Shown in pieces: positions 57,870 through 59,574 of a stretch of 64,000 nucleotides of DNA; position 1 is the first letter of the stretch, and the number at the start of each line of letters is the position of its first letter. This DNA comes from Escherichia coli. GTDB taxonomy: Bacteria > Pseudomonadota > Gammaproteobacteria > Enterobacterales > Enterobacteriaceae. The notes under the pieces were generated by a model. It had not been told where the DNA came from. It ran no database searches and saw only the letters and a program-made list of their open reading frames with translations. The stretch is from assembly GCF_011045215.1 (NCBI RefSeq), contig NZ_CP049201.1; one strand, 5' to 3'. The translations under genes and the position numbers were made by a program.

Positions 57870-58320
57870 CCCACGTCACATCCTGGAATACATGCGACCA
57901 GTCGCCTTCGGAAGATGGCAGGCGGGGTTTTGGCTCCGGCAGGTGTTCTGCCTGCGGTGTGCCCTGACTGCTGCGCGTGATGCGAACGCGTTCCCGCAGG
58001 GGGAGCGTAAACAGGAGATCGGCGCTGTCATCGTCATTGATAACGGCGGAGAATTTGATGTCCTGATTACGCTCAGGGTTGAGCAACAACTGTGGCTGAT
58101 TTTCGGATAACCACGCCAGCAGCGGCAGCGTGAGGTCGTCCAGCTCCCCGGCGTAATCCATGACAAACATCACCATCTGATAGCGGTAAACAAACGATGG
58201 GGTTTCTCCTGTCGTTTCAATGTTGCCGCTCTCCACGAAAATGGTGAATTTTTCCGGGTTGGCCTGACACCATCGGCATGAACGGGTCATGGCTTCACGC
58301 AGGGAATCAGTTTTCAGCAT
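57853..58320 (-). CDS. Tail completion protein gpR-like
   Basis: 155-aa ORF downstream of the lysis cassette, as in P2. Confidence 0.65.
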   Translation of the reverse strand: MLKTDSLREAMTRSCRWCQANPEKFTIFVESGNIETTGETPSFVYRYQMVMFVMDYAGELDDLTLPLLAWLSENQPQLLLNPERNQDIKFSAVINDDDSADLLFTLPLRERVRITRSSQGTPQAEHLPEPKPRLPSSEGDWSHVFQDVTWGESDG

Positions 58321-58597
58321 GGTTGTTGTCCTCGTTGTTCAGTCTTTGCAGCCTGCGCTGTTCCAGTAATTCAATGGCCCGTTTATCCGCGTTACAGGTT
58401 TCCAGTGCATCCAGAAGGCGGTCGCCCCATATACCGAGATTTCCCCATGTGGGAGTGTCAGGGAAGGGGGGAGGCGTTACCGGTATGGTCAGCGTCTGCG
58501 GTATAAGCCGGACTGACGGCGCTGGCCGTGGCGCGTTCTGCGTGCCTGCGCAACCTGTCAGTAAAACGAGCGTCAGGCAAAGCGTGGGCGCATTCAT
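58307..58597 (-). CDS. Outer-membrane spanin lipoprotein (Rz1 / LysC-like), embedded out of frame in the 3' part of the Rz-like gene
   Basis: Start at MNAPTLCLTLVLLTGC (lipobox LTGC), Pro-rich mature part; overlaps 58458-58865 in another frame. Confidence 0.55.
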   Translation of the reverse strand: MNAPTLCLTLVLLTGCAGTQNAPRPAPSVRLIPQTLTIPVTPPPFPDTPTWGNLGIWGDRLLDALETCNADKRAIELLEQRRLQRLNNEDNNHAEN

Positions 58598-58865
58598 CTT
58601 TTGCAATATCGTTGCGTAGCTGTTCACGTCTTACCTCTCCGTCCTGATTGCGTTGCTGATTTTCCACGCGGAGTTGCGCCAGCACCTGCTGCATATCCTG
58701 TACCCCGGCGCTGATGATATTCAGGGTGTCGGCGGTACTTTTCAGGGTGCTGGCCTGCGCTTCGTTTCTGGCGTTCTCCCGGCCCAGCGACCACGACAGA
58801 CGCATGGATGTTCCCCATCCGGCAATCAGAAGGAAAGCGACGCCAAGCGTGGGCCAGAGCTTCAT
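58458..58865 (-). CDS. Inner-membrane spanin (Rz / LysB-like)
   Basis: Start at MKLWPTLGVAFLLIAGW (N-terminal TMS) followed by coiled-coil region; ORF-track start 59009 rejected. Confidence 0.6.
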   Translation of the reverse strand: MKLWPTLGVAFLLIAGWGTSMRLSWSLGRENARNEAQASTLKSTADTLNIISAGVQDMQQVLAQLRVENQQRNQDGEVRREQLRNDIAKDECAHALPDARFTDRLRRHAERATASAVSPAYTADADHTGNASPLP

Positions 58866-59254
58866 GCCGGATAGGCTCCGTGTGGTAACTGAAAATGCGG
58901 TCCGTCTTTCAGGGTCTTCCAGTCGCCGCCCCATTCCACCGGAATATTCAGTTCCCGGCTGGCCTGTCTGAATGCTGCTGCGATTTTTTCGTACAGCGGC
59001 CATTCCCATGACACCTGGCTGCCGATATAAGCCACAACATCCACGGCATGCCCCGTAAGGTGGCGGCTGTTCATGGTCTGGCTCTTACCTGTGGCCACAA
59101 GTTGCTTCTGGCGGTAACGGCTGCGCAACCCTTCGGTGATACCAAAATCCACTTCCGAGATTTCCAGTGCCCGTCGGGTCACTTTCACCAGATCAGGATT
59201 TACGCCCTGCAAATTCTTTTCGCTCCGGCTGCTGAATTTAAATGTGTTGCTCAT
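58862..59254 (-). CDS. Endolysin, peptidase M15-family L-alanyl-D-glutamate peptidase type
   Basis: 130-aa ORF with SRHLTGHAVDV and WGGDW...DGPHFQL motifs typical of zinc D,D/L,D-peptidase endolysins. Confidence 0.75.
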   Translation of the reverse strand: MSNTFKFSSRSEKNLQGVNPDLVKVTRRALEISEVDFGITEGLRSRYRQKQLVATGKSQTMNSRHLTGHAVDVVAYIGSQVSWEWPLYEKIAAAFRQASRELNIPVEWGGDWKTLKDGPHFQLPHGAYPA

Positions 59255-59574
59255 TCGTCCTTCTCCTTCACCCTGCGATTAAAGGCCGCAATAACCTTGT
59301 CGCGTGCTTTCTCTGCCCCCATAAAACCGATTGATGCGCCGATAAACGTCACGGCATCTTCAGGAAAACCGAAGAAGCGCAACGACCCGGCCACGGCCAT
59401 GGCAAGAACGCCGCACGCCAGCGATCCCGTTACGGTCTGAACCAGTGTTCGTCCGTCATAAAGACTCATCAGCGCGGAAATGCTGACCGCCGCGCCTACT
59501 GCATACACCGTTGGCAGGTGGTCAAAGAGCCATGCAATAACCTGCTCTGTGATCCCTGTTTGAATGGTGCTCAC
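59251..59574 (-). CDS. Putative holin
   Basis: Small protein with two or three TMS immediately upstream of the endolysin; start assigned to GTG at 59574 after GGGGGGAG RBS (uncertain). Confidence 0.5.
   Translation of the reverse strand: MSTIQTGITEQVIAWLFDHLPTVYAVGAAVSISALMSLYDGRTLVQTVTGSLACGVLAMAVAGSLRFFGFPEDAVTFIGASIGFMGAEKARDKVIAAFNRRVKEKDE

Follow-up and report, generated by a model that had tools for sequence, protein, structure and literature searches.

Lysis cassette of a P88-like prophage in Escherichia coli: a lambda-type holin and an M15 endolysin between P2-type tail genes

We analysed a 64,000-nucleotide stretch of Escherichia coli DNA (contig NZ_CP049201.1 of assembly GCF_011045215.1, hereafter the window) and concentrated on four genes at window 58307-59574, on the minus strand, which have the P2-type tail genes X and R on either side. 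They encode a holin, an endolysin, a spanin subunit of the inner membrane (i-spanin) and a lipoprotein spanin subunit of the outer membrane (o-spanin), and we read them with high confidence as the lysis cassette of a P2-family prophage that resembles P88 (genus Xuanwuvirus, family Peduoviridae) and would lyse its host by the canonical three steps of holin, endolysin and spanin action. The cassette is already known and annotated and is an ordinary feature common among P88-like prophages; about one in five sequenced E. coli carries it. All four lysis genes as well as all flanking genes could be assigned by Pfam families, and the four also fall into lysis families of PHROGs, their best matches having E values of 1.7e-35 to 5e-77. 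What was observed directly is the structure of the genes, the families to which they belong, the conserved catalytic residues, localisation signals, near-identity to an inducible phage and the junctions of exchanged segments.

Escherichia phage P88 (NC_026014) is a mitomycin-inducible P2-like phage that forms lytic particles (PMC5285337). About 21.6 kb of the window are colinear with P88, the DNA identity being 99.1% over window 58000-59900 and 98.6% over 56500-61400. Genes gp29-gp33 of P88 have the same order and coordinates for X, the holin with its GTG start, the M15 endolysin, the DUF2570 i-spanin and R, and there is essentially no difference between the two loci. Fourteen further phage records are 95.7-98.9% identical to the region, and phage 503458 has an endolysin that matches at 100% identity. 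Among bacterial genomes a 1451-bp core was 100% identical in five E. coli chromosomes and was present in 1007 of 5426 complete genomes, counting here and below matches in which at least 80% of the query is covered. At E. coli loci of 100% identity the Prokaryotic Genome Annotation Pipeline (PGAP) names the products “phage holin family protein”, “M15 family metallopeptidase”, “DUF2570 domain-containing protein” and “lysC: Rz1-like lysis system protein LysC”.

The second gene of the cassette encodes the endolysin. Its profile matches are to PF13539 Peptidase_M15_4 (46 bits against a cutoff of 25) and to the endolysin family phrog_465 (E 5e-77), which bears out the call of an M15 peptidase and not a lysozyme that an earlier sequence-only reading of the window had made from two zinc-peptidase motifs, SRHLTGHAVDV and WGGDW, found here at residues 63-73 and 108-112. 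In a phmmer search of PDB sequences the protein matched ChiX of Serratia marcescens (5opz; E 2.5e-48, 62% identity over 126 ungapped residues), two further M15 entries at about 1e-46 to 1e-48 (8q2g has an E value of 2.7e-46) and the L-alanyl-D-glutamate peptidase of phage T5, the T5 endolysin (2mxz; E 8.8e-23). ChiX is a LAS-family zinc enzyme with the zinc ligands H68, D75 and H123 and the catalytic residue D120, and muropeptide analysis showed that it releases GlcNAc-MurNAc-L-Ala from sacculi (PMC5778951). Residues H65, D72, H120, D117 and R44 of the endolysin align with H68, D75, H123, D120 and R47 of ChiX, so that the zinc-binding H-x6-D...H triad, the catalytic acid and the substrate-binding arginine are all in place and the zinc ligands and catalytic aspartate are the same in both proteins. 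The 62% identity to ChiX points to an M15/LAS zinc L-alanyl-D-glutamate endopeptidase that would cleave the L-Ala-D-Glu bond. A hydropathy search of the endolysin for a signal peptide, a signal-arrest-release (SAR) sequence or a transmembrane segment found none (maximum 15-residue Kyte-Doolittle value 0.74), and its N-terminus, MSNTFKFSSRSEKN, is hydrophilic. Having no hydrophobic segment, the enzyme should depend on the holin to reach the wall.

The first gene encodes a protein that, judged by its sequence, is a class I, single-start holin of the lambda S family. It matches Pfam Phage_holin_3_1 with 71.1 bits against a cutoff of 23.8, over profile positions 5-99 of 99, and phrog_126, holin/anti-holin, with an E value of 1.7e-35. 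Its identity to lambda S is 23%, the two being colinear and both 107 aa long. A hydropathy scan gives hydrophobic segments at about residues 20-39 and 44-70, and the C-terminal tail is charged (KARDK...RRVKEKDE). The start codon is GTG (59574-59572), the same start as chosen in the RefSeq record of P88 and by PGAP, and since the Pfam match runs from profile position 5 the N-terminus given by this GTG is needed. The sequence-only reading had proposed a non-ATG start overlapping the gpX stop; the start is indeed not ATG, whereas there is no overlap, the GTG lying 2 nt downstream of the gpX stop codon TAG (59579-59577) and just its Shine-Dalgarno sequence lying within gpX (Table 1). An in-frame GTG further upstream at 59592 has no Shine-Dalgarno sequence and would contribute no basic residue. 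We looked in the holin for the Met-Lys-Met motif of dual-start holin/antiholin pairs and found none; the N-terminus reads M(GTG)-STIQTGITEQ and the next in-frame methionine is residue 36. A start at this Met36, as in the annotation of phage Chuche, was rejected, as the protein would then lack its first hydrophobic segment and about 30 positions at the beginning of the Pfam match. The holin of phage Chuche is annotated from this internal methionine at 2752-2970 of its record (window 59251-59469), probably a start miscall caused by the GTG start.

The remaining two genes encode the spanin pair. In a hydropathy scan the i-spanin shows an N-terminal membrane anchor at about residues 3-21 followed by a charged periplasmic domain, and it has a single cysteine, Cys92. 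It matches the Rz-like spanin family phrog_214 (E 7e-42) and, faintly, phrog_89, the family of P2 LysB (E 8e-5); P2 LysB in turn matches phrog_214 at an E value of 2e-4, a weak reciprocal cross-match, and the Pfam match to DUF2570 is below threshold (20.1 against 26.6). A P2 ancestry of the i-spanin is proposed because of these weak reciprocal profile matches, which are its one basis. The o-spanin is assigned to PF23793 LysC, “Rz1-like lysis system protein LysC” (51.5 bits against a cutoff of 27, E 9e-14), on which P2 LysC itself scores 64.9, as well as to phrog_3001 (E 3e-25) and phrog_456 (E 2.5e-15), and by BLASTP it is 32% identical to P2 LysC (E 4e-5). Its lipobox LTG-C agrees with the PROSITE-like core pattern, and the residue at +2 is alanine, a non-aspartate. 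The lipobox cysteine codon lies at 58552-58550 and is Cys26 when numbered from the GTG at 58627; the mature protein is 81 aa long with any candidate start, contains 10 prolines and has one further cysteine, Cys53 of the mature form.

The start of the o-spanin gene lies 238 nt inside the i-spanin gene (58865-58627), in the +1 frame; 170 nt are common to both genes, and a further 151 nt follow the i-spanin stop at 58458. Because it continues past that stop the architecture is “overlapped”, a class defined with P2 as its type example (PMC6139136), and the embedded architecture of the lambda Rz/Rz1 type was rejected, the o-spanin ending at 58307. The sequence-only reading had seen a lipoprotein embedded out of frame and running into the R-like gene: the out-of-frame position and the lipobox LTGC stand, as does the run into R (57853-58320), which amounts to 14 nt, and only the word embedded has to be replaced.

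From these family memberships a three-step pathway may be proposed. The 107-aa lambda-S-type holin, made from its GTG start, would build up in the inner membrane and trigger to form large holes; the soluble cytoplasmic M15 zinc endopeptidase would exit through the holes and cut the L-Ala-D-Glu bond of the stem peptide; and a complex of the i-spanin in the inner membrane and the o-spanin as an outer-membrane lipoprotein would span the periplasm and, after degradation of the wall, fuse both membranes. All three steps are predicted from the families to which the proteins belong, and the enzymatic specificity, the membrane topologies, the order of events and the usage of start codons are likewise predictions by homology. 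The lambda S-R-Rz-Rz1 system is alike in having a holin of the same Pfam family (class I, 107 aa), a soluble holin-dependent endolysin and a two-component spanin. It differs in that lambda S has the dual-start S107/S105 antiholin motif whereas the holin described here has one start, in that lambda R is a transglycosylase and not an M15 endopeptidase, and in that Rz1 is fully embedded whereas the spanin genes of the cassette are overlapped; BLASTP between the lambda spanins and those of the cassette found no similarity. The endolysin of phage T5 (EndoT5, 2mxz) belongs to the same fold family, and the phage backbone and the holin and spanin partners differ.

The most informative comparison is with P2, in which the genes Y-K-lysA-lysB-lysC likewise lie between X and R, with a +1 overlapped spanin pair whose o-spanin gene runs into R (by 38 nt in P2 and 14 nt here). 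The surrounding L, X, R and S genes all have P2 counterparts (Table 1), in agreement with the P2-like late region that had been noted earlier. The P2 holin Y belongs to Phage_holin_3_2 while that of the cassette is of the lambda S type, Phage_holin_3_1; the P2 endolysin K is of the lysozyme type while that of the cassette is an M15 endopeptidase; and compared with P2 LysB the i-spanin is only marginally LysB-like. Homologues of P2 Y, K and lysA were sought in the cassette with no BLASTP match, and the Pfam and PHROG families differ; the neighbouring genes, all of which abut or overlap, also leave no room for a lysA open reading frame (ORF). The X...R frame and the overlapped spanins of the LysB/LysC type thus look like inherited P2-type features by their sequences and layout, and the comparisons support an exchange of the holin and endolysin (and, separately, of the endolysin alone), with loss of lysA, and not of the whole lysis module. 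An exchange within an otherwise P2-like region had been suggested from the window itself; it holds where holin, endolysin and the lost lysA are concerned, while the spanin pair, which had been taken to replace P2 functions as well, appears to be ancestral, its LysC family, overlapped layout and run into R being common to P2. In the published phylogeny the P88 “lysin” branches apart from those of other P2-like phages (PMC5285337).

Direct evidence for the exchange of the endolysin gene came from Citrobacter phage Shae_phiSM (Xuanwuvirus). By blastn it is 98.1% identical to the window over 56500-58844 and 97.7% identical over 59274-61399, with no match between the two blocks. The intervening 429 bp consist of the M15 gene with some 20 nt on either side, and the counterpart in Shae_phiSM is a segment of 640 bp that encodes, by Pfam, a muramidase endolysin with GH108 and PG_binding_3 domains. 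One junction lies in the final codons of the holin gene and the other in the opening codons of the i-spanin gene, where the amino acids differ, and both the M15 and the GH108 alleles are flanked by a near-identical (about 91% at the amino-acid level) lambda-type holin and LysB/LysC-type spanin pair. The M15 segment is present in 1049 and the GH108 segment in 66 of the 5426 complete E. coli genomes and, among the matches listed, both sit under the same holin and DUF2570 annotations. Further out, Enterobacter phage phiT5282H (Novemvirus) and Klebsiella phage Kp4845-1 (Reipivirus) retain the X...R frame and carry in it a Phage_lysozyme-family endolysin with a hydrophobic N-terminus, SAR-like in look, and an unrelated small holin. 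In phiT5282H X is 77% and R 67% identical to the genes of the window, each of the two spanin subunits is 39% identical to its counterpart in the cassette, and the o-spanin has the same lipobox and the motif TWG..W.DRL.DAL.TCNADK. Related M15 endolysins were found in 1249 phage records across many genera; the closest outside Xuanwuvirus are those of Bas82 (75% identity) and Pm34 (61%), both accompanied by unrelated spanins. We considered that the holin and the M15 endolysin might travel as a consistent unit and rejected it, since the holin of Bas82 is unrelated, though that of Pm34 is lambda-like. The slots of the holin and the endolysin within the inherited X...R frame are swappable. The locus makes a clean textbook case of phage mosaicism, in which the endolysin alone or the holin with the endolysin is swapped, the spanins are inherited and the structural operon is conserved, and its exchange junctions can be placed with a precision of about 20 nt.

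Several observations weigh against the reading of the cassette given above. The holin scores 54.5 on the NCBIfam lambda-holin equivalog TIGR01594 (holin_lambda), just below the cutoff of 55.05, and the crude hydropathy scan shows the third transmembrane segment expected of such a holin (about residues 74-88) only weakly, a scan that under-calls lambda S too. For the o-spanin there are three candidate starts, GTG 58627, ATG 58597 and CTG 58576. The paper on P88 (PMC5285337) handles the “lysin” by phylogeny only, and in the P88 lineage the functions of all four proteins rest on homology; the window covers only part of the prophage, so that inducibility of this copy rests on its likeness to P88. 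Finally the i-spanin fails the LysB equivalog TIGR03495 (16.3 against 92.75) and gives no BLASTP match to P2 LysB. This last point would suit an import of the whole four-gene module, spanins included, as one block from a phage outside the P2 group. We consider such an import very unlikely: the o-spanin shares with P2 LysC its Pfam family, LysC, the +1 overlapped layout and the run into R, and its divergence from P2 is within the range of the flanking genes (25-48%). Moreover homologous spanins (38-39% identity) are kept in the Novemvirus and Reipivirus relatives with a different holin and endolysin, and it is the nearest M15 endolysins outside Xuanwuvirus, in Bas82 and Pm34, that come with other spanins.

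Three further explanations concern what the four genes do. The identity of the endolysin to ChiX raises the thought that the cassette might be a Type 10 secretion system like ChiWXYZ, domesticated for the non-lytic release of proteins. ChiWXYZ of Serratia marcescens, of which the sequence of ChiX was compared, has the same four-part composition: a holin-3 family holin with a single translation start, ChiW (PMC4259817), an M15 L-Ala-D-Glu endopeptidase, an i-spanin and a lipoprotein spanin. Yet its locus serves chitin utilisation, is defined by the lack of adjacent phage genes and is argued by its authors to act in secretion (PMC4259817), whereas here gpX and gpR directly flank the cassette within a contiguous phage late operon, from X to R, whose start and stop codons overlap, and the region is 99% identical to that of an inducible, plaque-forming phage. 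Membership of the Type 10 systems is rejected because the cassette sits in a prophage structural operon, and a role in secretion is in our view highly improbable; what the likeness does do is show that such cassettes in phages are closely related to the endopeptidases of Type 10 secretion. We give just as little weight to a pinholin/SAR-endolysin pathway, in which the endolysin would be exported by Sec and the holin would merely depolarise the membrane. The SAR-like enzymes that occupy this slot in phiT5282H and Kp4845-1 might suggest it, but the N-terminus of the M15 protein is hydrophilic, its reading as a SAR endolysin was rejected for the absence of any hydrophobic segment, and the holin is a full-length protein of the lambda S family. 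That the prophage is a decaying cryptic remnant, in which the cassette has no function in this genome, is very unlikely. Only part of the prophage lies within the window and its cargo at 40.1-42.3 kb differs from P88; against this none of the four ORFs is disrupted, five other E. coli chromosomes have DNA that is 100% identical, the endolysin does not differ from that of phage 503458 by a single residue, and colinearity with P88 extends from the gpD end through the capsid genes. We therefore keep to the reading of a holin-endolysin-spanin lysis cassette of a P88-like prophage.

Within that reading we make two further suggestions, both of them doubtful but worth stating. One concerns the timing of lysis: with two unrelated endolysin chemistries in one slot and no antiholin (neither a dual start nor LysA) timing could possibly be set by non-classical means, without an antiholin. 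The other is that translation of the o-spanin may start at GTG 58627 and not at the annotated start, which would give an unusually long signal peptide of 25 residues. This GTG has a strong Shine-Dalgarno sequence, its signal peptide contains one lysine, and only with this start is there a basic residue in the n-region; for the ATG at 58597 the Shine-Dalgarno sequence is poor and a basic residue is lacking. The CTG at 58576, the lysC start given by PGAP, was considered implausible, with 8 residues only ahead of the lipobox cysteine. Neither suggestion alters the kind of system.

The importance of the cassette is slight beyond annotation quality. The errors in o-spanin annotation are worth correcting for the mining of spanins and for the engineering of P88-type phages. 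In the records of P88, Chuche and Shae_phiSM no o-spanin is annotated, and the apparent gap of 137 nt between the i-spanin and R (window 58321-58457) is actually coding; the records of 500465-2, 503458 and 520873 have no spanin name over the o-spanin match. In vB_EcoM-705R2, vB_EcoM-569R5 and the prophage PV468777 similarity ends inside codon 85 of the o-spanin gene (about window 58372) and the C-terminal tail differs (...AELDKRIAELTHQTGVTQ). In 705R2, whose locus we read (ON470623.1 2001-3559), a gene for an “unknown protein encoded within prophage CP-933V” follows in place of R. This break right after the lysis cassette has the look of a further recombination junction or of an inserted moron.

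Every gene in window 56.3-64 kb is on the minus strand (Table 1). L and X overlap in TGATG, X and the holin gene are spaced by 2 nt, ATGA overlaps occur at both the holin/endolysin and the endolysin/i-spanin borders, and the genes form one translationally coupled block within a long late operon, with L and X before the cassette and R and S after it. A promoter and terminator scan of 56500-64000 gave fewer sites than shuffled controls and nothing convincing within the cassette, which fits one long coupled operon, and an Rfam scan of 57500-60300 at E<=1 returned no match. The plus-strand ORFs across the cassette (59048-59440, 58278-58619, 58714-58971 and 58653-58874) have no Pfam match at E<=0.1; for lack of family matches they were discarded as genes and treated as antisense shadows.

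Table 1. Positions in the window of the lysis genes, their flanking genes and associated signals (aa, amino acids; nt, nucleotides).
Feature	Position	Strand	Assignment or remark
Head-completion gene L	59777-60280	minus	38% identity to P2 L
gpX-like tail protein X (upstream flank)	59577-59777	minus	Pfam Phage_tail_X, 73.7 bits; 48% identity to P2 X; same coordinates as in the P88 annotation
Shine-Dalgarno sequence GGGGGAG of the holin gene	59580-59586	minus	5 nt upstream of the GTG, within the last gpX codons
Predicted holin, 107 aa	59251-59574	minus	Pfam Phage_holin_3_1
Segment exchanged relative to Shae_phiSM	58845-59273		M15 gene and about 20 nt on either side, 429 bp
Endolysin, 130 aa	58862-59254	minus	Pfam Peptidase_M15_4
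i-spanin (Rz/LysB-like), 135 aa	58458-58865	minus	phrog_214
Shine-Dalgarno sequence GGAGAGG of the o-spanin GTG	58634-58640	minus	6-nt spacer; within the i-spanin codons for D-G-E-V
o-spanin (Rz1/LysC-like) lipoprotein ORF, +1 frame	58307-58627	minus	Pfam LysC
gpR-like tail completion protein (downstream flank)	57853-58320	minus	Pfam P2_Phage_GpR, 137 bits; 40% identity to P2 R
Tail-completion gene S	57225-57860	minus	25% identity to P2 S

Elsewhere in the window a single tRNA-Arg(CCT) gene at 12374-12448 lies among host genes for a LacY-family symporter, a formate/nitrite-type transporter, MlaA and FadL, with no adjoining mobile element seen. The host genes that precede the gpD end of the prophage are mnmC-like (35262-37328), fabB-like (37427-38647) and an MFS transporter (38922-40100). 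Between these and the gpD end lies the cargo at 40097-42300, with an ORF of 331 aa that has only a faint GemA-like similarity and an N6/N4 DNA methylase at 41322-42113; it is absent from P88, and phages 500465-2 and Chuche match further into the region. A serine DNA invertase (Resolvase and HTH_7 domains) is encoded at 49994-50611 on the minus strand and adjoins oppositely oriented duplicates of tail-fibre-tip and tail-fibre-assembly genes, at 50875-52154 on the plus strand and 52183-52710 on the minus strand. The duplicates carry inverted repeats of 65-80 nt with arms at 51621-51781 and 52550-52710, and window 49994-52710 is a Gin/Cin-type host-range switch, as in the annotation of P88.

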